DNA of 42,822 nt from a phage: assembly GCA_018167975.1 (NCBI GenBank), contig GCA_018167975.1_4333.1. The stretch is one strand, 5' to 3'. Both the position numbers and the translations under genes were made by a program. Position 1 is the first letter of the stretch, and every line of letters begins with the position of its first letter. The notes beneath the pieces were generated by a model. That model was not told the DNA's origin. It worked only from the letters and a program-made list of their open reading frames with translations, and did not search any database. Positions 1-42,822 of this stretch are shown here, one piece after another.

Positions 1-32
1 AAAAAAAAATCCCGGCTGGGTCAGGGCCGGGA
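1..32 (-). terminator. Rho-independent terminator (minus strand): 7-bp GC stem TCCCGGC/GCCGGGA followed on the minus strand by a T9 run
   Basis: Inverted repeat 10-16 / 26-32 with A9 at 1-9 on the plus strand (= U9 after the hairpin on the minus-strand transcript); downstream of the leftward lysis operon. Confidence 0.6.
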
Positions 33-103
33 TAAAACTGGAGAGCAGAGGGATGGAACAGGAGGTGATTTAAGTATCGTCGGATTGGTCTTATGTGTCA
101 ATT

Positions 104-135
104 GGTAAAATAAAACCCGGATTCGCGGTCCGGGT
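104..135 (-). terminator. Rho-independent terminator (minus strand), first of a tandem pair
   Basis: Stem ACCCGGA (115-121) / TCCGGGT (129-135), loop TTCGCGG; plus-strand AAAATAAA immediately upstream gives a U-rich tail on the minus transcript. Confidence 0.5.
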
Positions 136-264
136 TTCGGTCATAAGCCCCTGAACCCCACGCAGTCTCCACCGCTTGGGCTGCTGCTTCAGGTTTACCA
201 GGGCTTAGTATGTGGGCACAAACAGCGTGGAAGTAAGTTTACTAAACGCCTTCGTATTCGTCCA

Positions 265-750
265 TCATTTAACAGCCCTCCCGATAGCCTCCGCCTCCTG
301 CCACGGTTTACCGTCGAACAGCGCCAGACGGCCAGCTGTACGGCGGCGCAGGCCAAGTAACGGTTTGCCGTTCTGGTTGATGAACAGCGCCAGCTTAGCC
401 CGCAGCGTCGTGGTATCGCCAGAACGCAGCGCCTTACCCGTGCCTGTAGTAGCTGCAATCACACCAGCACCTGCGTTGTAGACCAGGTCGCAAATTGCGT
501 CAAACTGTGCCTGTGTTAATGAATGGTGGGCTGCTGCATCAACCGCAGCTACGGCCTTAGCCATATCACGATTCAGTAACAGGAGGCCCTGACCGGGTGT
601 GATGGTCTTGCCTGGCGTTACGTCAGGCCCGTAGTGCCCGTAACCGATAGTCAGGTACTTCTCATTCGGCGTAGCGCGGTACGCGGTTCCGCGGAACCCC
701 TCAAACGCAGCGGTGAAATGCAGTCCATTATCTGAAATGTTTCGAGACAC
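265..750 (-). CDS. Endolysin, GH24 (T4/lambda-type) lysozyme
   Basis: ORF 265..801; translation contains FEGFRGTAY...TIGYGH...LNRD, typical of phage lysozymes; probable GTG start at 750 preceded by GGAGG (rc of 759-763); alternative TTG at 801. Confidence 0.8.
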   Translation of the reverse strand: MSRNISDNGLHFTAAFEGFRGTAYRATPNEKYLTIGYGHYGPDVTPGKTITPGQGLLLLNRDMAKAVAAVDAAAHHSLTQAQFDAICDLVYNAGAGVIAATTGTGKALRSGDTTTLRAKLALFINQNGKPLLGLRRRTAGRLALFDGKPWQEAEAIGRAVK

Positions 751-1000
751 GCTTATGTCCTCCGTACGATAACCACGCCTGGCGAATCTGGCGTAGCGCA
801 ACTAATGTGATTAATGTCTCGGGCAGTGTTGGTGACATGCTGCCCTGTAACAGGTGGATGCATCCGGCAGCGCAGACGATAGCGGTCAGGATATAGAGCA
901 CCCGGCCAAATAATCCGTCGTCCACGCTGGGGTGGTATACATTAAAAAGCGATGTGCCCCCGATTGCCAGCATACCGCCGAACCAGAATAACTCATTCAT
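728..1000 (-). CDS. Holin/antiholin-like small membrane protein (2 predicted TM helices)
   Basis: Internal ATG at 998-1000 with GGAGG RBS 5 nt upstream; hydrophobic stretches FWFGGMLAIGGTSLF and VLYILTAIVCAAGCIHLL; located between the other holin-like gene and the endolysin, overlapping both. Confidence 0.55.
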   Translation of the reverse strand: MNELFWFGGMLAIGGTSLFNVYHPSVDDGLFGRVLYILTAIVCAAGCIHLLQGSMSPTLPETLITLVALRQIRQAWLSYGGHKRVSKHFR

Positions 1001-1301
1001 CTGTGCCTCCTCGACGTGCGATGTATTCTCCGGCGACGATACCAGAGAGACGGGAATAGATAGGCATCCAGAGAATAGCGATAATGAAGCCGAGGCCAGC
1101 GATTTCACGGTCGCCCGTGATTCCAAACCATTGAGCGGCAAGAGGTGCGCCAAATACAGCGCAAGTGAAGCCAGTTGCGATAAAGCAGAATCCGTCGATA
1201 GGGCCGGAAATAGCGGACTTATGTTGCCTTAGCCCGATTACCCCTCCGGCTAGCGCGGCAGCGAGAAGCCAGCCTGTCACTGTTTCAGTAAATTTATCCA
1301 A
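993..1301 (-). CDS. Holin-like membrane protein (3 predicted TM helices)
   Basis: TTG start at 1301 with GGAGG RBS 7 nt upstream; three hydrophobic segments (WLLAAALAGGVIGL, GFCFIATGFTCAVFGAPLAA, IAGLGFIIAILWMPIY); first gene of the lysis cassette. Confidence 0.55.
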   Translation of the reverse strand: MDKFTETVTGWLLAAALAGGVIGLRQHKSAISGPIDGFCFIATGFTCAVFGAPLAAQWFGITGDREIAGLGFIIAILWMPIYSRLSGIVAGEYIARRGGTDE

Positions 1302-1360
1302 GATGAATCCTCCAGGTGCGTATTAAGTATGCAGTAACTGGAGGATACCACGGCTAGGAA

Positions 1361-1801
1361 TTATCCTAATAGTTGTTTGGTAATAATCTTGCCACCGGTG
1401 TTAGTGTCGAACTTCGAGGCAACAGCTACGCCACCATGTGCCGAATACCCGCATTCCATAGCCGCTAATGCATAAGGAGAACCGGAACCAACGGCGGCAA
1501 AGCTATCGGCAACTGGAATAACCGAACTAAGTGCACAATCCCATGATTTATAAAATGCGACTTTATACACCTTTTCTGTGTCTTTCACGAACACCAGGGC
1601 TTCGAAATCGAAGTCGTAGTGCTGTGGCCAAAGAATATCGGGACGATCGATAAGCATAGTCCCTACCCCAGCATCACCAGCCACCCCGATAACGGCAAAA
1701 TTATTCTCATATATCTTTGTGTCTGTGTTGTAACAGTTGCTCCCGCACACAACACGGGTGTCACAAGCCATTGTCTTTCCGTCAAACGCGATAGTAGTCA
1801 T
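1361..1801 (-). CDS. HslV-like Ntn-hydrolase (proteasome-type threonine peptidase homolog)
   Basis: N-terminus MTTIAF (Thr directly after Met, as in HslV MTTIVSV) and AVGSGSPYALAA matching the HslV GSGGPYAQAA signature; GGAG RBS 8 nt upstream of the ATG at 1801. Confidence 0.55.
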   Translation of the reverse strand: MTTIAFDGKTMACDTRVVCGSNCYNTDTKIYENNFAVIGVAGDAGVGTMLIDRPDILWPQHYDFDFEALVFVKDTEKVYKVAFYKSWDCALSSVIPVADSFAAVGSGSPYALAAMECGYSAHGGVAVASKFDTNTGGKIITKQLLG

Positions 1802-2090
1802 TTATGTCTCCAGATGTATTGTCGTCTCTGCGGTTTCGTCGGAATATCTTCATACCCAGCGATTTCCAGTAATTAAATAACCGATTAGCAATAGCCGCCC
1901 GTTCCTTTGTCTTGAACTCGCCGAGGTTCACGGCCTTCCCGTTCTGGAATCCACAGGCGCGGACAGCCTTGCGTCTGGCCTGAATCTCGGTGTACAGCGC
2001 ATTACGGCGGCGCTTGTATATCTGTGTTTTAGCTCTCGGCGACAGCGGCGCAAGGCCGCTTCGTTTCAGGATGTCAGTTGCAAGAGTCAT
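1782..2090 (-). CDS. Hypothetical basic protein
   Basis: ATG at 2088-2090 with GGGGTGA RBS; Arg/Lys-rich 102-aa product; no recognisable motif. Confidence 0.5.
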   Translation of the reverse strand: MTLATDILKRSGLAPLSPRAKTQIYKRRRNALYTEIQARRKAVRACGFQNGKAVNLGEFKTKERAAIANRLFNYWKSLGMKIFRRNRRDDNTSGDINDYYRV

Positions 2091-2096
2091 TTTACA

Positions 2097-2552
2097 TCAC
2101 CCCACAACCCGGTACGCAATAATGTCATAATCTCGTTCGCCGTTACATAACCACCAGCGATAAATACACGAATCGTCCTTATATGCGATGGTACCGTCGC
2201 GGAATTTAACATCGACAAGCCTCCCCGGAACAGGGTTTTCACCTCCGGGCCATACTGTCCACGCAGACTCCTTCCCGTTATGTTCCACCCCTTCCACATG
2301 TGTAATTGACCCGCGGTTCGCGCACTCGACGTAATCCGGGAACTGGTCTTTGTATTTCTGTAACTCGGCTTTTACTTCTGCCAGTCTCGCCACGAGTCCC
2401 TCGATTTCCATGTCCGTAGTGGTTATGTAGTCCTGGAAATCGTCATCCAGTTCCTTGTAATCTCCATAACGCACCCAGTCACCGTCTGCGTCTTTCTCTA
2501 AGTCAATATGCCCCGTAACACAGTCTTCTTTTAAATCGTATCTCTGTACCAT
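2097..2552 (-). CDS. Hypothetical protein
   Basis: ORF 2097..2558; ATG at 2550-2552 preceded by AGGAGAA at 9-nt spacing; acidic N-terminal half. Confidence 0.5.
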   Translation of the reverse strand: MVQRYDLKEDCVTGHIDLEKDADGDWVRYGDYKELDDDFQDYITTTDMEIEGLVARLAEVKAELQKYKDQFPDYVECANRGSITHVEGVEHNGKESAWTVWPGGENPVPGRLVDVKFRDGTIAYKDDSCIYRWWLCNGERDYDIIAYRVVG

Positions 2553-2554
2553 AA

Positions 2555-2758
2555 TCACTTCTCCTGTTTACCAAGTCGCTTAGGTGAGCAGATAGCGCGT
2601 ACCTCTGAATCGTTGGGCTTGTCGCCCTGAAACAGGAAGTGCGCGTTCTCTGCGGCGCGTGCCGCTGACTGGCACGCCTCCATCGAGTAAAACGTTTCTG
2701 ATGCCGCGAGTTGCATCTGACCCGCGGACAGTACCCAGATAAATAAGATGCTGGTCAT
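2555..2758 (-). CDS. Small putative secreted protein (N-terminal signal-peptide-like segment, 3 Cys)
   Basis: ATG at 2756-2758 overlapping the upstream stop (ATGA); MTSILFIWVLSAGQMQLAASE resembles a signal peptide; stop overlaps the next start. Confidence 0.4.
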   Translation of the reverse strand: MTSILFIWVLSAGQMQLAASETFYSMEACQSAARAAENAHFLFQGDKPNDSEVRAICSPKRLGKQEK

Positions 2759-3219
2759 AAGTTTATTACCCCGCGTTTGGCGCAACGCCTGTACTCTTCT
2801 CCGTTAGGATAATAATAATCCCACTCGTGTTTGCATTTCTGCGTATCGTTTTTAGGTTTATATTCCTTGTCGTCCCACTCACGCGCACCCCATTCACAGC
2901 AAAACCGACTACCAGGCACGTTATCCTTGTGGCCTTCCGCAATAAACAATCCGGGAGCGATAATCCAATTGTGGTCGCATTCCTGAACGTCTTCTTTACG
3001 GCAACCGGATTGCTCCTGTTTGCGTAGAACTTTGTAAGCCTCAACGTCCCCGTTCATTAACGTTATAGTCCCCATCAACTCGTCAACCACCTCTGACACA
3101 TCACGTAACTGATTCTTAAGTGACTGCACCTCGTGCGCCAGGTCTTCGCACTGGTTGCTATTTACCTGCTGCCGTAACTGGTCAATCAGGTACTCGAATA
3201 CTTCGTTTTTAGTGTTCAT
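2755..3219 (-). CDS. Hypothetical protein with coiled-coil N-terminus and Cys/His-rich C-terminal domain (possible zinc binding)
   Basis: ATG at 3217-3219; C-terminal half has CRKEDVQECDH...FCCEW...CKHEW...RRC pattern. Confidence 0.5.
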   Translation of the reverse strand: MNTKNEVFEYLIDQLRQQVNSNQCEDLAHEVQSLKNQLRDVSEVVDELMGTITLMNGDVEAYKVLRKQEQSGCRKEDVQECDHNWIIAPGLFIAEGHKDNVPGSRFCCEWGAREWDDKEYKPKNDTQKCKHEWDYYYPNGEEYRRCAKRGVINL

Positions 3220-3337
3220 ATTCTTCGCTCACTCCGTTATAGACGCCGTTGTAATCCCCGTCGCAGATGAACGGGCAGAGCATATCTTCGTACTCGTCCT
3301 GCAACTCACCTAAAGTCACTTCGCTATAATCTTTCAT
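3209..3337 (-). CDS. Small hypothetical protein (42 aa, acidic)
   Basis: Below the ORF-track length cutoff; ATG at 3335-3337 preceded by GAGAGGAGAGA RBS; stop overlaps the start of the 2755..3219 gene; first gene downstream of the promoter at 3369-3397. Confidence 0.35.
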   Translation of the reverse strand: MKDYSEVTLGELQDEYEDMLCPFICDGDYNGVYNGVSEEYEH

Positions 3338-3368
3338 CTTTTGTCTCTCCTCTCGTTTGTGTAAATGA

Positions 3369-3397
3369 ATAGTAGCCTATTCTATCTTAGCGTGCAA
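3369..3397 (-). promoter_or_regulatory. Sigma70-like promoter (minus strand): -35 TTGCAC, 17-bp spacer, -10 TACTAT, with AATAG-N4-CTATT palindrome in the spacer
   Basis: rc of 3392-3397 = TTGCAC; rc of 3369-3374 = TACTAT; spacer 17 nt; same design as the promoters at 4831, 26106, 35159 and 37018. Confidence 0.5.
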
Positions 3398-3557
3398 GTA
3401 AATTTTATTGGTGTTTGTATTGTTGCATCTCCTGCAATAGTCGCTTCGATTGTTGCGTTTGGTGAAATAGAACAAAAATGAGAAAAATGATACGCTGCTG
3501 TGTAGCAGCGTAAGTCACAAAGCCAAATAGTAACCTATTGACCTGTTACACCACCTG

Positions 3558-3755
3558 CTACACCAGCGACGGCGGCTCAGGTAACGGCATCCAGTGAGTC
3601 ACTTCATCACGTGAAAACCACCCAACCCCTGTAACATACCAGGCGTCATTTCTATCGTTGAACCATGCCACTCTGCAAACCATATCCATGTCGGTTATTA
3701 TTACGTCACGGCATGCCGTAGGCATCCGCCCACTACACTTAACCCACTCGCTCAT
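3558..3755 (-). CDS. Hypothetical phage protein, DUF551-like (C-terminal HWMPLPEPP)
   Basis: C-terminal WYVTGVGWFSRDEVTHWMPLPEPP resembles the DUF551 pattern common in enterobacterial phages. Confidence 0.45.
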   Translation of the reverse strand: MSEWVKCSGRMPTACRDVIITDMDMVCRVAWFNDRNDAWYVTGVGWFSRDEVTHWMPLPEPPSLV

Positions 3756-3913
3756 AAATCACCTCTCTTCTCAAATGCACCAGCCATTACATTTGCACCA
3801 GCTTTCCACGCCCGCCACGCCAGACGCGTCTTAACGTTCAGGTACTCTTTCTTCGAACCCTTGTTAACCGGCAGGCCCTCGACGACGGCCCACCGTTCAA
3901 ATGCTTCTCTCAT
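3752..3913 (-). CDS. Small hypothetical protein (53 aa)
   Basis: Below track cutoff; ATG at 3911-3913; stop overlaps the ATG of the 3558..3755 gene (ATGA); fills the gap between flanking genes. Confidence 0.3.
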   Translation of the reverse strand: MREAFERWAVVEGLPVNKGSKKEYLNVKTRLAWRAWKAGANVMAGAFEKRGDL

Positions 3914-3916
3914 AAC

Positions 3917-4183
3917 TTAGCCCATCTTCTCTTTAACGTGTACCCAGAATTCACCGCAATACCAACACCACATAAGATTAGGTGTCTCGCGAACCCAACC
4001 GTAATCCCCGCGTGCGCGAATCGGGATAATGCCTTTAATGAAATAATAACCTGTTCGCAGAAACTCAGGGTCGCGCGTCGCGGTGCGCCACATGTTATAA
4101 AACTGCTCCAGCCCGGCACCCCGACGCATGACCCGTACCTTATGAAGGGTGTCAGAGACTTTTTCCAGTTCAGTATTATTCAT
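3917..4183 (-). CDS. Hypothetical protein
   Basis: ORF 3917..4231; ATG at 4181-4183 with GGAG RBS about 10 nt upstream. Confidence 0.4.
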   Translation of the reverse strand: MNNTELEKVSDTLHKVRVMRRGAGLEQFYNMWRTATRDPEFLRTGYYFIKGIIPIRARGDYGWVRETPNLMWCWYCGEFWVHVKEKMG

Positions 4184-4385
4184 AACTAATAACTCCGATA
4201 ACTTTAGATTTCTCGCGCCGGGTGCAACCATGTTCGATGTAGTAGCGCGCCTGCTTGACGCTTTCGCAACGGGTCAGAGTAACCCACCAGAAAAAGCCAA
4301 CGCGAACCTGCACGGCAGGTGTAATTCGTTTCTCACCGAAGGCGGTAACCCACTCTTCGCTAACTATGCGGTATTTACTTAACAC
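4176..4385 (-). CDS. Hypothetical protein
   Basis: ORF 4176..4421; GTG at 4383-4385 preceded by GGGAGG (rc of 4391-4396) at 5-nt spacing. Confidence 0.35.
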   Translation of the reverse strand: MLSKYRIVSEEWVTAFGEKRITPAVQVRVGFFWWVTLTRCESVKQARYYIEHGCTRREKSKVIGVISYE

Positions 4386-4617
4386 GGCAACCTCCCTCAG
4401 AGTCGTCGGCACTGGCATCATGATTCGATGCCGTTGTGAATAACGCTAACCATCTCCAGGTATAAACACCCATACGCCCTTCATACACATCCTCGTCAGT
4501 TACCCGATAATCATCGCCATCATCAGAGGTAACGTACCCATCGATACTTAACGTATAACGCTTTCCTTCTGTGAAGTAATCGCAGAGACTGGTAACGCAA
4601 ATTAATTCTTCCATCAC
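4375..4617 (-). CDS. Hypothetical acidic protein
   Basis: ORF with Asp/Glu-rich middle (TSDDGDDYRVTDEDVYEG); start overlaps the upstream stop. Confidence 0.4.
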   Translation of the reverse strand: MMEELICVTSLCDYFTEGKRYTLSIDGYVTSDDGDDYRVTDEDVYEGRMGVYTWRWLALFTTASNHDASADDSEGGCRVK

Positions 4618-4796
4618 TTCGCCCCTTTGAATTTAAAATTGTTGCCGATGAGTGTTAGCTCGTCTTCACGCACCCCCACGTCAAAGTCCCATTCTGGGTG
4701 CGTGAGATGGTACGACCCTGGAACTTTATTCGGAACTCGTTTAATAATTCCATATTGGCCCTGTACAGTTTTAACCAACTGACCACGTTTAAACAT
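4614..4796 (-). CDS. Hypothetical protein (first gene of leftward accessory operon)
   Basis: ORF 4614..4805; ATG at 4794-4796 preceded by GAGGAG; lies about 30 nt downstream of the leftward promoter at 4831-4859. Confidence 0.45.
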   Translation of the reverse strand: MFKRGQLVKTVQGQYGIIKRVPNKVPGSYHLTHPEWDFDVGVREDELTLIGNNFKFKGAK

Positions 4797-4830
4797 AACC
4801 CTCACTCCTCTGTCTCGTTTCGATAAGTGA

Positions 4831-4859
4831 ATAGTATCCTATTATGTTGGGGTGTGCAA
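4831..4859 (-). promoter_or_regulatory. Sigma70-like promoter (minus strand): -35 TTGCAC, 17-bp spacer, -10 TACTAT, with embedded AATAG-N4-CTATT palindrome
   Basis: rc of 4854-4859 = TTGCAC, rc of 4831-4836 = TACTAT; the 37 nt 4824-4860 are an exact reverse-complement copy of 26105-26141. Confidence 0.55.
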
Positions 4860-5195
4860 GAGAATAGTTACGTTGCCGTTGTGATTCTTTCGTGTAATAG
4901 GATAGCGAGCGAAACGAAACGAACGTGGTGCCGAAGGCACCAAGAGTGAGTGAGTGAGCTTGCGAATCAATAACTTATATCATGTGGTAAAATTTAAATA
5001 GACGGGGGCTTTCTTGCGACTTGCTGTTACTTTGAGGAAACTTAGATACTAACGTTGTCGAAGTGACTCTCAGCGCCCGTCCTTCATTGGCCGGGCTTTG
5101 GTCACCAGAGACTTAATAATAATGTTTCTAAGTAATTCTAAACTAAAGTCCTTCGATACGTTGATTTTACAGCTACATTTTATTTTGTCAACAGG

Positions 5196-5224
5196 TTGTG
5201 TTTAGCTATCGTGGGTGTTATAGT
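5196..5224 (+). promoter_or_regulatory. Candidate early rightward promoter: -35 TTGTGT, 17-bp spacer, -10 TATAGT
   Basis: TATAGT at 5219-5224 (the -10 hexamer shared by the plus-strand promoters at 8656, 10943 and 15053); weak -35; 30 nt upstream of the HTH gene start. Confidence 0.35.
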
Positions 5225-5253
5225 TGTTTCACTTGATAAAGAGGGCGCGTAAA

Positions 5254-5433
5254 ATGACACAGAAAGAAGTAGCAGACTTAATAGGGGTATCTCCTATGAC
5301 GCTTAATCGCTGGTTACGGTCTGGTAAGTTCCCGGAGTGTTGCCGGGTTATTAATGGCTACCGGCAGCCCGGTACTTTTGACCGCGCTACTGTGGAGGAG
5401 TGGATTAAGGAGAACGTGAAAGATGTTAACTAA
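5254..5433 (+). CDS. Small helix-turn-helix DNA-binding protein (AlpA/Xis/MerR-like HTH)
   Basis: MTQKEVADLIGVSPMTLNRWLRSGKFP is a classic HTH segment; ATG at 5254 with GAGGG RBS; first gene of the rightward early operon. Confidence 0.55.
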   Translation: MTQKEVADLIGVSPMTLNRWLRSGKFPECCRVINGYRQPGTFDRATVEEWIKENVKDVN

Positions 5434-8631: not shown

Positions 8632-8661
8632 TTGACAACATGAATAGTTCGCTATTATAGT
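8632..8661 (+). promoter_or_regulatory. Sigma70-like promoter: -35 TTGACA, 18-bp spacer, -10 TATAGT, palindrome AATAGTTCGCTATT in spacer
   Basis: TTGACA 8632-8637, TATAGT 8656-8661; AATAG-N4-CTATT at 8643-8656; followed by GAGGAG RBS and the ATG at 8693. Confidence 0.6.
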
Positions 8662-10923: not shown

Positions 10924-10948
10924 CACCTGAATAGTTAGCTATTATAGT
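10920..10948 (+). promoter_or_regulatory. Sigma70-like promoter: -35 TTGACA, 17-bp spacer, -10 TATAGT, palindrome AATAGTTAGCTATT in spacer
   Basis: TTGACA 10920-10925, TATAGT 10943-10948; upstream of the SSB-like gene. Confidence 0.6.
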
Positions 10949-14780: not shown

Positions 14781-15091
14781 CCCCGGAAGGCAAGATTCAG
14801 AAATACGCAAAAGAGCAATTCGAGGCCATTGGTGGCCTCGTTCGCAAGATGGCATTTGAAGGTCGGCGAGCCGCTATGGACCTCCTGGTAATTCTCCCCG
14901 GAGGCATCATCTGGTTCGTTGAGGTGAAGAAAGACGAAAATACGAAGCCGGAGCCACACCAGCTACGCGAGCATGAAAGATTCCGAAAACGTGGCGCGAA
15001 TGTTTTTGTCGTTGGTTCGTTTAAACAGGTTGACACCCTAATAGCAGACTATTATAGTAAACACATACCCCAACAATATAAGGAATTATAA
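14777..15091 (+). CDS. VRR-NUC domain nuclease (PD-(D/E)XK fold)
   Basis: ORF 14762..15091; ATG at 14777; DLLVILPGGIIWFVEVKK (D...E-V-K catalytic pattern) and the small size fit VRR-NUC. Confidence 0.55.
   Translation: MTPEGKIQKYAKEQFEAIGGLVRKMAFEGRRAAMDLLVILPGGIIWFVEVKKDENTKPEPHQLREHERFRKRGANVFVVGSFKQVDTLIADYYSKHIPQQYKEL
15030..15058 (+). promoter_or_regulatory. Sigma70-like promoter: -35 TTGACA, 17-bp spacer, -10 TATAGT, palindrome AATAGCAGACTATT in spacer
   Basis: TTGACA 15030-15035, TATAGT 15053-15058; lies inside the 3' end of the VRR-NUC gene, upstream of the 15093 gene. Confidence 0.55.
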
Positions 15092-35158: not shown

Positions 35159-35187
35159 TTGCACACCCCAACATAATAGGGTACTAT
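35159..35187 (+). promoter_or_regulatory. Sigma70-like promoter: -35 TTGCAC, 17-bp spacer, -10 TACTAT, palindrome AATAGGGTACTATT
   Basis: TTGCAC 35159-35164, TACTAT 35182-35187; near-identical to the promoters at 26106 and 4831 (rc). Confidence 0.6.
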
Positions 35188-35221
35188 TCATTACATCGAA
35201 ACGAGAGATAAGGAATTTAGA

Positions 35222-35441
35222 GATGAACAAAGCTACCGCAAACGTGGTCCGCGCTATCGAAGAACTTTACGGCATTGATATCGCGAGCCGTGTGCTTATC
35301 GGAAACAAACGTAACTTTTTTACCTTTTGCACGGATGGTATGGAAGAGAACGATTTTAACAACGTTCAACGTTTTGCTAACGAACACGGTCTACGCAACG
35401 AGCCAGCAGGTTACAAGAAATTCGCTATATTCTTTAAATAA
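35222..35441 (+). CDS. Hypothetical protein encoded by a rightward moron
   Basis: ORF 35124..35441; ATG at 35222 with AAGGAA RBS; own promoter and terminator; opposite in orientation to the flanking head genes. Confidence 0.5.
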
Positions 35442-35470
35442 AACTAAGGCCCCGAAAGGGGCCTTTTATC
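35442..35470. terminator. Bidirectional Rho-independent terminator between convergent genes
   Basis: AAGGCCCC-GAAA-GGGGCCTT (35446-35465), U-tracts on both strands. Confidence 0.65.
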
Positions 35471-37017: not shown

Positions 37018-37046
37018 TTGCAGGCACCAATATAATAGGGTACTAT
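37018..37046 (+). promoter_or_regulatory. Sigma70-like promoter: -35 TTGCAG, 17-bp spacer, -10 TACTAT, palindrome AATAGGGTACTATT
   Basis: TTGCAG 37018-37023, TACTAT 37041-37046; followed by CAGGAGGG RBS and the ATG at 37072. Confidence 0.55.
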
Positions 37047-37071
37047 TCAGTTAACTTAAACAGGAGGGTGT

Positions 37072-37317
37072 ATGCAGGAATTACCTAGTTGCGAACGTGA
37101 GTTCATTGGCGGGTTCATACCGGTTAATAATCTCAGTATATCGGACTTATTTGACCTAAGAGAAAATGGCAGACTTTGGGTGTGCAATGCGAAAGATGCT
37201 TCAAAAGCTAGAGTATGGAACTTTAGTTTAATGCGCCGTCCGAACAAATCTGGCGAAGGTGCTGTCGGTATGGATTTGTTGCAACGCAAAGGTAAGCTAT
37301 TTATGAGAGTGCGATAA
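37072..37317 (+). CDS. Hypothetical protein encoded by a rightward moron
   Basis: 81 aa; own promoter, RBS AGGAGGG and terminator; sits between portal and head morphogenesis genes on the opposite strand. Confidence 0.5.
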   Translation: MQELPSCEREFIGGFIPVNNLSISDLFDLRENGRLWVCNAKDASKARVWNFSLMRRPNKSGEGAVGMDLLQRKGKLFMRVR

Positions 37318-37318
37318 A

Positions 37319-37348
37319 ACTAAGGCCCCTTACGGGGCCTTTTCTCTA
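37319..37348. terminator. Bidirectional Rho-independent terminator
   Basis: AAGGCCCC-TTAC-GGGGCCTT (37322-37341) followed by TTCTCT on plus; overlaps the portal stop codon. Confidence 0.6.
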
Positions 37349-41557: not shown

Positions 41558-41791
41558 CTACCCCACTATCTCATCACCAAGCCACGCCGTTTCTCGTATA
41601 TCGTCGACCACACAGGCGGCGTGTTCACGGCTAATTGCAAAAATGTAGAAGCTGAACTTCTTCCCGTCGGCGTCGATGTGGTTAACCGAGTAGGGTTTCC
41701 ACAGGACGCCATCAATGACTACGGGTTTAGGCGACTCCATATGCTTTACCACATTTAATGCACGTGGCTCGATGTAATCCACCAACCACAT
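41558..41791 (-). CDS. Hypothetical protein
   Basis: 77-aa ORF; start uncertain (ATG at 41791 or 41740), weak RBS. Confidence 0.35.
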   Translation of the reverse strand: MWLVDYIEPRALNVVKHMESPKPVVIDGVLWKPYSVNHIDADGKKFSFYIFAISREHAACVVDDIRETAWLGDEIVG

Positions 41792-41966
41792 GTAGGTAGT
41801 AATCGTGCTCGCAAGGCTTTTCGTCTGCCTTCAACTTATCAAGAAGCAACTTAAACGCCTCCAGTTGAAACTCACCGTTAATTGACAGTTGCCCGCCTAA
41901 CGTCTGTTTCTCTGACTCAAGCACCAGAATACGGCGCTCAAGTGATGTGATTGTGATTTTAGGCAT
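41727..41966 (-). CDS. Hypothetical protein (coiled-coil N-terminus, C-terminal CxxC)
   Basis: ORF 41727..41975; ATG at 41964-41966 with AAGGTGG RBS. Confidence 0.35.
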   Translation of the reverse strand: MPKITITSLERRILVLESEKQTLGGQLSINGEFQLEAFKLLLDKLKADEKPCEHDYYLHVVGGLHRATCIKCGKAYGVA

Positions 41967-42144
41967 CGCTGCCACCTTTGTTCAGATTGAAGCGGTTAAT
42001 CAGTTCACGGCGAGTCTCGTAAAGCGACTCAACCATCTGCTCTGCTACTGCGATTTTAGTATTCAGGACGTACATCACGTGTCCGATGTCTACGCCGTTG
42101 TTAACGGCCTCTACCATCATCTTTTCATATTCACGGTCAGTCAT
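41959..42144 (-). CDS. Hypothetical protein
   Basis: 61-aa ORF, ATGA-type coupling to the upstream micro-ORF. Confidence 0.4.
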   Translation of the reverse strand: MTDREYEKMMVEAVNNGVDIGHVMYVLNTKIAVAEQMVESLYETRRELINRFNLNKGGSDA

Positions 42145-42801: not shown

Positions 42802-42822
42802 TAGTCATTACAGAAAACATAT

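Follow-up and report, generated by a model that had tools for sequence, protein, structure and literature searches.

The Guernseyvirinae are among the phages of Escherichia coli and Salmonella most often isolated for therapy and biocontrol, and regions like the one analysed here hold about a quarter of their genes, all without known function. In Kagunavirus and Jerseyvirus relatives (Snoke, UTEC10, K1G-like phages, GertrudWoker_Bas73, VT223), the left arm of the genome has a constant order: a divergent helix-turn-helix (HTH)/primase-helicase control region, small leftward genes, a peptidase, holins and an endolysin. The same order was found in a phage contig of 42,822 nucleotides (nt) (GenBank assembly GCA_018167975.1, contig GCA_018167975.1_4333.1; hereafter the window). 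There, a 3.5-kb block of twelve small genes, numbered g1 to g12 leftwards, lies upstream of the lysis genes (Table 1).

The closest described counterpart of two of the block proteins is Ea22 of phage lambda. In Ea22, a short N-terminus of variable sequence leads into a long coiled coil, and the small domain at the C-terminus can be exchanged, being DUF551 in one variant (PMC10834534). Its region contains mosaic non-essential genes of unknown mechanism, transcribed from an early promoter (PMC10834534). DUF551 itself has no established biochemical function (PMC4776307, PMC10834534). Another counterpart is the HslV (ClpQ) peptidase: the annotation of the block peptidase of Snoke cites H. influenzae HslV with an HHpred probability of 99.66. 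In the literature, no functional study was found of the phage HslV-like peptidase family, and no transcriptomics or promoter mapping was found for the Guernseyvirinae.

The block is best explained, with a probability of about 0.55, as the ordinary leftward accessory arm of a virulent, Kagunavirus-like siphophage of the Guernseyvirinae, with two units, a conserved backbone, exchangeable cargo and modulator proteins. Host RNA polymerase would transcribe both units from one promoter-plus-operator design, the first running from P1 through g1–g6 to a terminator and the second from P2 through g7–g12 into the holins and endolysin. The backbone would consist of g9, g12 and g8 across the subfamily and of g5, g11 and the N-terminal part of g10 across the genus, the rest being cassettes. 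The proteins would be dispensable or conditionally useful modulators that bind host or phage proteins. Among them, g8 and g10 may be coiled-coil oligomers that, like lambda Ea22, display small portable domains (zinc-ribbon, W-x-x-W-GGExPVPG); g6 is a DUF551 domain on its own; g12 would be a Thr peptidase that forms its own compartment and whose catalytic residues are intact; and g9 is probably exported and disulfide-bonded. The region is already deposited as 'hypothetical proteins' in hundreds of genomes, and it is no new system or mechanism.

Genome, predicted promoters and putative transcription units

The block matched 331 phage records in GenBank, nearly all from Escherichia and Salmonella Guernseyvirinae (Kagunavirus, Jerseyvirus). 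The best records covered 66–67% of the block at 88–97% identity, and none of the 331 reached a coverage of at least 80%. The nearest genome overall was Kagunavirus LM02P1 (coverage 87%, identity 91%). A Logan assembly of run ERR4013410 was 100% identical to window positions 1–4853 and then ran into positions 42822–42577. Since positions 1 and 42822 are joined in this contig, the window is taken to be a complete, circularly closed Guernseyvirinae genome of 42.8 kb, mostly Kagunavirus-like. In run ERR4013410, the phage was co-sequenced with an E. coli isolate. The Logan contig ends at a 30-nt promoter repeat common to 4824–4853 and 26112–26141.

The twelve proteins and the block DNA were compared with nine related loci. 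About twelve small leftward genes had been announced by the original prediction, and twelve tightly packed minus-strand open reading frames (ORFs) were indeed found at 1361–4805. Most junctions overlap by 4–20 nt or leave gaps of only 2–6 nt. Shine-Dalgarno-like motifs precede most of the twelve genes and are weak at g5 and g9. Homologues, ribosome-binding sites and the coordinates of PHROG profiles served to refine the starts; a separate gene call on a second ERR4013410 assembly found ten of the twelve genes (g5 and g11 were missed) and gave the same refined starts for g1, g3, g4 and g10. All twelve ORFs have homologues elsewhere. The order of the arm, with an HTH gene (5224–5433) and a helicase divergent from the small genes, followed by the HslV-type peptidase, two holins and the endolysin, matches the layout in Snoke, UTEC10, K-01, Bas73, VT223 and SGPC.

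The two promoters named in the original prediction, P1 and P2, are repeated elements that both read exactly TTGCAC-N17-TACTAT. This family of putative promoters has five near-identical copies with about 35–40 nt of common sequence, the other three being located at 26106, 35159 and 37018 on the plus strand. Every copy precedes a ribosome-binding site with its start codon by 25–45 nt. Four copies of the motif are exact, versus about 0.005 expected (arithmetic for 12 fixed bases in 85.6 kb). The P1 stretch (4811–4889) is 93–100% identical in seven to eight of the nine relatives, though the flanking genes differ. In the alignment of relatives at P2, the spacer drifts, and no such drift is seen in the −35, the −10 or the palindrome.

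The palindrome in question, AATAG-N4-CTATT, overlaps the −10 in all five promoter copies. It also occurs within the spacer of three TTGACA-type promoters before the rightward replication genes. Thirteen copies with at most one mismatch were counted versus 1.0 expected, a number reached in none of 100 shuffles, and most of the exact copies lie inside two promoter-like types, TTGCAC-N17-TACTAT and TTGACA-N18-TATAGT. The palindrome is a good candidate for a common operator recognized by one phage-encoded regulator.

The block is divided into two units by a hairpin at 3512–3491 that the first reading of the sequence had missed. It has the features of an intrinsic terminator: a 9-bp stem and a 4-nt loop, followed by UCAUUUUUCU. 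Its folding energy is −15.8 kcal/mol (z −4.1), and none of 200 shuffles folded as well. The stem is kept in nine of nine relatives and the loop is different in Jerseyvirus. No terminator-like site was seen on the minus strand from P2 (3369) to the end of the endolysin gene (265). With a terminator at 3512–3491 and none further on, two units would result: P1 to g1–g6, and P2 to g7–g12, holin, holin and endolysin. The P2 unit is joined to the lysis cassette physically and probably also transcriptionally.

The non-coding interval 3419–3536 is 81–94% identical in all nine relatives, including Jerseyvirus, and contains the terminator hairpin and a leader of about 70 nt that includes a ribosome-binding site. 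Some relatives have an ATG at the end of the leader, which opens an extra gene, annotated 'NrdC-like thioredoxin' in K-01. This ATG reads ATA in the present genome, E2010, Snoke and vB_kpnM_D1, where the leader abuts P2. A 37-codon ORF at 3405–3518 was rejected as a gene: its frame is broken in Jerseyvirus and UTEC10, and the hairpin and leader are still conserved there.

Further elements were noted elsewhere in the genome. Three rightward moron-like units (26106–27965, 35159–35470 and 37018–37346, plus strand) lie within the leftward structural module, each opening with a promoter of the P1/P2 type and closing with a GGCCCC...GGGGCC terminator. The first carries a PF14373 superinfection-immunity protein (63 amino acids (aa), gene 26176–26367), a 376-aa protein with weak, sub-threshold matches to calcineurin-like phosphoesterases, and two small ORFs. 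The other two are single ORFs of 72 and 81 aa that belong to no family. On the minus strand (region 4926–5191), a sigma-70 promoter close to consensus (TTGACA-16-TAAAAT, 11/12) is present about 300 nt upstream of P1. No convincing ORF is seen in the next 230 nt or so, which contain hairpins at 5093–5072 and 4942–4926 and vary among relatives. This stretch might serve as a leader or a small RNA, or belong to the control/origin region. Rfam, used at gathering thresholds, returned no RNA family anywhere in the window. In the lysis cassette, the first holin gene (993–1301) has a TTG start, 6 nt past a GGAGG ribosome-binding site.

The modular proteins g8 and g10 and their lesions

The Cys/His-rich protein expected at 2755–3219 is g8, which has 7 Cys and 4 His. 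Its family comprises 1341 proteins; among the matches listed, the members on long contigs sit on contigs of 41–48 kb. In the family alignment, a conserved N-terminal coiled coil comes first, then a linker of hypervariable sequence, and last a pair, or at times a trio, of CxHxW...CxxCG modules. In the g10 family, the core ELQKYKDQFPDYVECANCGSxTHVEG is invariant and is followed by nothing, by a zinc module (phage ST20) or by a W-x-V-W-x-GGENPVPG...DIIAYRVV domain. The consensus of the putative zinc ligands is CxH...CxxCG, twice, in the g8 family and one CxxCG in the g10 family, and AlphaFold confidence is too low for the fold to be judged at these sites.

The C-terminal domain of g10 (2097–2283) had no DNA match in the nine relative loci. 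By tblastn against GenBank phages, all its matches were below 60% identity (33–48% among the matches listed) and came from Wifcevirus, Vequintavirinae, Klebsiella siphophages, and Sinorhizobium and Caulobacter phages. Full-length fusions of g10 to the W-x-V-W-x-GGENPVPG domain were found on metagenomic contigs only, at no more than 79% identity. Pfam scans of five distant carriers of the domain returned no family. It was also considered as a divergent DUF551, which was rejected (hhalign probability 0.4%).

Several chimeras were seen. P0120 has an N-terminus of the g10 type and zinc modules of the g8 type, ST20 P0182 has the core of g10 and a zinc module, and in Wifcevirus FEC19 gp04 an N-terminus resembling that of g10 and a coiled coil are joined to the C-terminal domain seen in g10. 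The g8 and g10 proteins are tied together by P0120 and FEC19 gp04. Related knuckles are borne by g4 and by an ORF at 41727–41975. The latter (minus strand, 82 aa) lies downstream of the lysis genes and has the g8 design, a coiled coil with CEHDY...CIKCG, its knuckle being intact.

AlphaFold models were computed for both proteins, and both were of low confidence. For g8 (43 sequences), the mean predicted local distance difference test (pLDDT) score was 54, with the C-terminal half below 50 and only the helix at residues 3–69 (block-mean 60–77) coming near a usable level. For g10 (21 sequences), the mean was 63 and the C-terminal domain scored about 40–65. The long helices of g8 and g10 were modelled with only moderate confidence (pLDDT mostly 60–90), and zinc binding and the fold of the C-terminal domains are putative. 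When the g10 model was searched against BFVD by fold, all that came back were uncharacterized sequence relatives (e.g. WFC, FEC19, FV3). The layout of variable N-terminus, coiled coil and exchangeable C-terminal domain is that of lambda Ea22, whereas the CxxCG knuckles are not described for Ea22 in PMC10834534. The likeness is architectural only and does not amount to sequence membership. As the phage is virulent, a pro-lysogenic role cannot apply.

In the alignments, 60 columns of g8 and 36 of g10 are at least 90% conserved. The present genome deviates at only 3 of these 96, namely g8 C110W, g8 C149R and g10 C82R. All three affect the final Cys of a CxxCG knuckle, and the changes are shared by none of the other 42, 42 and 20 aligned sequences, respectively. 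In g11, a 1-nt deletion in a G-run at about 1853 (GGGG to GGG), relative to four Kagunavirus relatives, replaces the last 18 residues by 23 unrelated ones and lengthens the gene by 20 nt into the peptidase gene. The lesions of g8, g10 and g11 were found in this genome only, among the relatives compared.

A genome-wide loss of Cys, by artefact or mutational bias, was not supported. Real genes have only scattered Cys changes, other CxxCG motifs are intact, including the knuckles of g4 and of ORF 41727–41975, and the lesions of all three genes are identical in the separate assembly of the same reads (ERR4013410, 100% match). Random hits on exactly three knuckle-Cys columns are improbable. The lesions probably impair g8, g10 and g11, which fits a non-essential role, and relaxed or negative selection on the function of g8-g10-g11 would be the simplest reading of them.

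Conserved backbone and exchangeable cassettes

Three levels of conservation were distinguished in the block. The genes g9, g12 and the N-terminus of g8 are common to Kagunavirus and Jerseyvirus; g5, g11 (residues 1–79) and g10 (residues 1–92) are Kagunavirus-wide; g1, g2, g3, g4, the g6 alleles, g7 and the C-terminal domain of g10 are swappable cassettes. The genes g9, g12, g11, g5 and g8 are orthologous to those of the Kagunavirus/Jerseyvirus left arm, in which P1, P2 and the terminator are also conserved. Across the loci, aa identity is 91–100% for g9, 61–99% for the peptidase g12 and 25–99% for the holins. The ratio of non-synonymous to synonymous substitution rates (dN/dS) versus relatives is 0.02–0.38 for g5, g9, g12 and codons 1–79 of g11, indicating purifying selection.

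Compared with its relatives, the present genome has g3 and g4 like E2010, g1 and g2 like LM02P1, and g12 like vB_kpnM_D1, a combination of cassettes that is new. Short conserved stretches are found at the cassette junctions (e.g. 4384–4433, 3796–3914, 3419–3536, 3135–3210, 2550–2758 and 2285–2371). The best explanation is that cassettes would be exchanged by recombination at these junctions.

The best-conserved gene of the block is g9, present in nine of nine loci including Jerseyvirus (dN/dS 0.02–0.16). Only 17 representative clusters of homologues were found among 1.8 billion proteins, and all homologues of the same length keep the hydrophobic N-terminus and two Cys. The two invariant Cys suggest a disulfide. 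A signal peptide had been assigned to this protein; hydrophobic residues 4–20 and a possible A-A-S cleavage site speak for it and the lack of a basic residue before them against it, so that export is plausible only. The basic protein of the original prediction is g11 (pI 11), but its last 23 residues stem from the frameshift described above.

The assignment of g12 as an HslV-like peptidase was confirmed at the PHROG level. Its scores are below the curated cut-offs of Pfam Proteasome (20.9 versus 22.4 bits) and NCBIfam HslV (14.7 versus 157.75 bits). As PHROG alone gave a strong match, g12 is regarded as a divergent member of the superfamily and not as an HslV orthologue. Residues M1-T2-T3, D14, K29 and G105-S106-G107 (GSGxPYA motif) are invariant in seven homologues and align to T1, D17, K33 and GSG of proteasome beta5 and HslV. 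Weak Protein Data Bank (PDB) profile matches were to HslV, BPH and proteasome beta5. Like HslV, BPH and proteasome beta, g12 has a Thr after the initiator Met, the Asp and Lys equivalents and GSGxPYA, whereas the HslV chains among the PDB matches have 171–184 aa and g12 has 146 aa (about 30 residues fewer). The protein is, on these predicted catalytic motifs, which are intact, a divergent Thr peptidase of the HslV/proteasome-beta type. It was found in 340 phage records, versus 15 for g4 and 26 for g7, all those of g4 being Kagunavirus and all those of g7 Kagunavirus-type.

The remaining genes are mostly cassettes. The identity of g1 is 98% in LM02P1 and 33–50% in the other relatives, and g3 is present in E2010 only among the nine loci. 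The presence of a DUF551-like protein was confirmed: g6 matched PF04448 with E=2.9e-13 (50.9 bits versus a gathering threshold of 22), spanning model positions 1–67 of 68. Its alleles are 33–98% identical among relatives. The domain is also present in E. coli CPS-53 YfdS and in Ea22 variant V2; g6 matches the full-length model and is the bare 65-aa domain. Extreme compositions are seen in g7 (charge about −11) and g11.

Table 1 Position of the block genes, predicted signals, lesions and lysis cassette in the window
Feature	Position	Strand	Description	Match or remark
P1	4831..4859	-	promoter-like TTGCAC-N17-TACTAT with overlapping palindrome AATAGTATCCTATT	upstream of g1
g1	4614..4796	-	basic, 60 aa, ATG at 4796; variable cassette	phrog_12538
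g2	4375..4617	-	acidic, ~79 aa; variable cassette with conserved C-terminal junction	
g3	4176..4385	-	69 aa, likely GTG start at 4385 behind AGGGAGG ribosome-binding site; rare cassette	phrog_2010
g4	3917..4183	-	88 aa, ATG at 4183, intact C-terminal CWYCG knuckle; cassette	
g5	3752..3913	-	basic, 53 aa; conserved in Kagunavirus	phrog_15836; dN/dS 0.04-0.38
g6	3558..3755	-	65-aa DUF551 protein	PF04448
Terminator	3491..3512	-	hairpin and U-run, putative intrinsic terminator closing the P1 unit	after DUF551 gene
Leader	3419..3490	-	conserved untranslated leader ending GGAG...ATA	81-94% nt identity, 9/9 loci
P2	3369..3397	-	second promoter-like TTGCAC-N17-TACTAT copy with palindrome	upstream of g7
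g7	3209..3337	-	very acidic (charge ~-11), 42 aa; cassette	phrog_35344
g8	2755..3219	-	154 aa; coiled coil, hypervariable linker, two CxHxW...CxxCG zinc-ribbon-like modules	phrog_6094, E=5e-52
g8 codon 110	2890-2892		TGG, Trp	
g8 codon 149	2773-2775		CGC, Arg	
g9	2555..2758	-	67 aa, hydrophobic N-terminus, two conserved Cys	phrog_3766
g10	2097..2552	-	151 aa, ATG at 2552; variable N-terminus, coiled coil, knuckle, portable C-terminal domain	
g10 codon 82	2313-2315		CGC, Arg	numbered from GTG at 2558
g11	1782..2090	-	102 aa, very basic, tail frameshifted after residue 79	phrog_9632
g12	1361..1801	-	146-aa HslV/proteasome-beta-type N-terminal-Thr peptidase	phrog_1040, E=4e-34
Lysis cassette	265..1301	-	two holins and endolysin, downstream	phrog_2359, phrog_2508, PF00959
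AATAG-N4-CTATT, exact copies	3368-3381, 3526-3539, 4830-4843, 8643-8656, 10930-10943, 15040-15053, 26122-26135, 35175-35188, 37034-37047		palindrome, candidate operator	plus 4 one-mismatch copies

Competing explanations and meaning

By comparison with Pfam, PHROGs, NCBIfam, PADLOC and PDB sequences, no block protein is recognizable as an anti-defence, defence or housekeeping protein. Ten of the twelve genes were placed in PHROG families, all of unknown function except the peptidase; the match of g2 was weak and partial (phrog_30617), and g4 had no PHROG or Pfam match. Searches of the block proteins in Pfam, NCBIfam and PADLOC gave only DUF551 and the sub-threshold Proteasome match. The genes did not all turn out to be housekeeping genes, since ten of the twelve were without functional assignment in Pfam, PHROGs, NCBIfam, PADLOC and PDB sequences, and in this respect the original prediction stood.

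That prediction pointed to an early-expressed arsenal for host takeover or anti-defence, in which every small protein would act soon after injection and shut down some defence system or process of the host. Such a role for the block as a whole gained no positive evidence and is considered unlikely. Its mosaic, patchy content is typical of counter-defence islands, its proteins are small and very acidic (g7, g2, g10) or very basic, and its genes adjoin the divergent control region, where the HTH gene and the helicase lie. P1, P2 and the promoters of the replication genes have one palindrome in common, suggesting common, possibly early, regulation, and the P1/P2 type of promoter also drives the PF14373 superinfection-immunity gene. 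However, the P2 unit apparently shares a transcript with the holin and endolysin genes, which fits poorly with a purely early unit, and the low dN/dS of g9 and g12 (0.02–0.16) is not arms-race-like. Seven Kagunavirus isolates that were phenotyped are reported to have a high sensitivity to restriction-modification systems and a variable one to Old (PMC11990801), which speaks against a strong anti-restriction factor of broad range being encoded where the region is conserved. There was also no match to a PADLOC family or a solved structure. A PADLOC scan of ten proteins (all but g1 and g7) gave only a chance-level coiled-coil match (E=0.023). When all twelve proteins were compared by sequence with PDB chains, every match had E>0.1 except a spurious one for g12 (E=0.006), and a PDB sequence search with g1–g7, singly and as a concatenate, gave no match at E<=1; remote families, or families without a solved structure, could escape such a search. 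The heavy mosaicism, the promoter type in common with the superinfection-immunity gene and the Ea22-like build of g8 and g10 would all agree with an accessory role in host interaction.

Alternatively, the P2 half (g7–g12) might be part of the lysis module, g9 being an exported envelope factor (spanin substitute, antiholin or superinfection exclusion) and g12 tuning lysis timing or processing lysis proteins. The absence of terminator-like sites from P2 to the endolysin, the order g9...g11-g12-holin-holin-endolysin kept across Kagunavirus and Jerseyvirus, and the strong conservation, hydrophobic N-terminus and invariant Cys pair of g9 favour it, as does the fact that no spanin is annotated in the relatives inspected, although no whole-genome spanin search was made. 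Nevertheless, it was judged rather improbable: g9 has no lipobox, C-terminal transmembrane segment or basic n-region, and even its export is uncertain; the block proteins are unlike any lysis PHROG; and Jerseyviruses have an extra gene and about 200 nt between the peptidase and the lysis genes.

The coordinated loss of knuckle Cys with the g11 frameshift is the only unexpected item in the block. It might point to a single zinc-dependent pathway, shared by g8, g10 and g11, whose selective inactivation took place in this lineage, a speculative view to which little credence is given beside that of simple relaxed or negative selection. If it were true, a host abortive-infection or defence sensor may recognize these proteins, or they may be toxic in a carrier state with the E. 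coli isolate, and the coiled-coil/zinc-knuckle proteins of the Guernseyvirinae would be triggers or effectors of phage–host conflict.

It is hardly credible that several ORFs are non-functional here and that the block is partly decaying filler kept by linkage, for although g8 is without two invariant Cys and g10 without one, g11 is frameshifted, g5 and g11 were missed by the automatic gene finder and an ATG-to-ATA start-codon remnant lies upstream of P2, all twelve ORFs have homologues (ten in PHROG families), g5, g9, g11 and g12 are under purifying selection, and ribosome-binding sites and translational coupling are seen throughout the block.

An accessory arm with two units thus remains the preferred explanation, and the following points weigh against it. 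P1, P2, the operator and the read-through into the lysis genes are all deduced from the DNA sequence. Relative to sigma-70 promoters, P1 and P2 match at 3/6 positions in the −35 (TTGCAC) and 4/6 in the −10 (TACTAT), with a spacer of 17 nt, and a generic sigma-70 scanner scored neither of them, because the −35 matches at only 3/6. The C-terminal domains of g8 and g10 have pLDDT values from below 50 to about 65. Searched against Pfam, g8 and g10 gave no Ead/Ea22 match, only chance-level models at E<=0.1. Finally, the strong conservation of g9 and g12 could signal importance rather than dispensability.

The map of the block separates the subfamily-wide genes g9, g12 and g8, which deserve functional study, from swappable cargo. 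The likely positions of the promoters, operator and terminator are useful for the engineering of small Kagunavirus chassis such as CM001. In addition, g8 and g10 would represent a class of coiled-coil proteins, modular like Ea22 and bearing portable domains at their ends, that is common to unrelated virulent phages.

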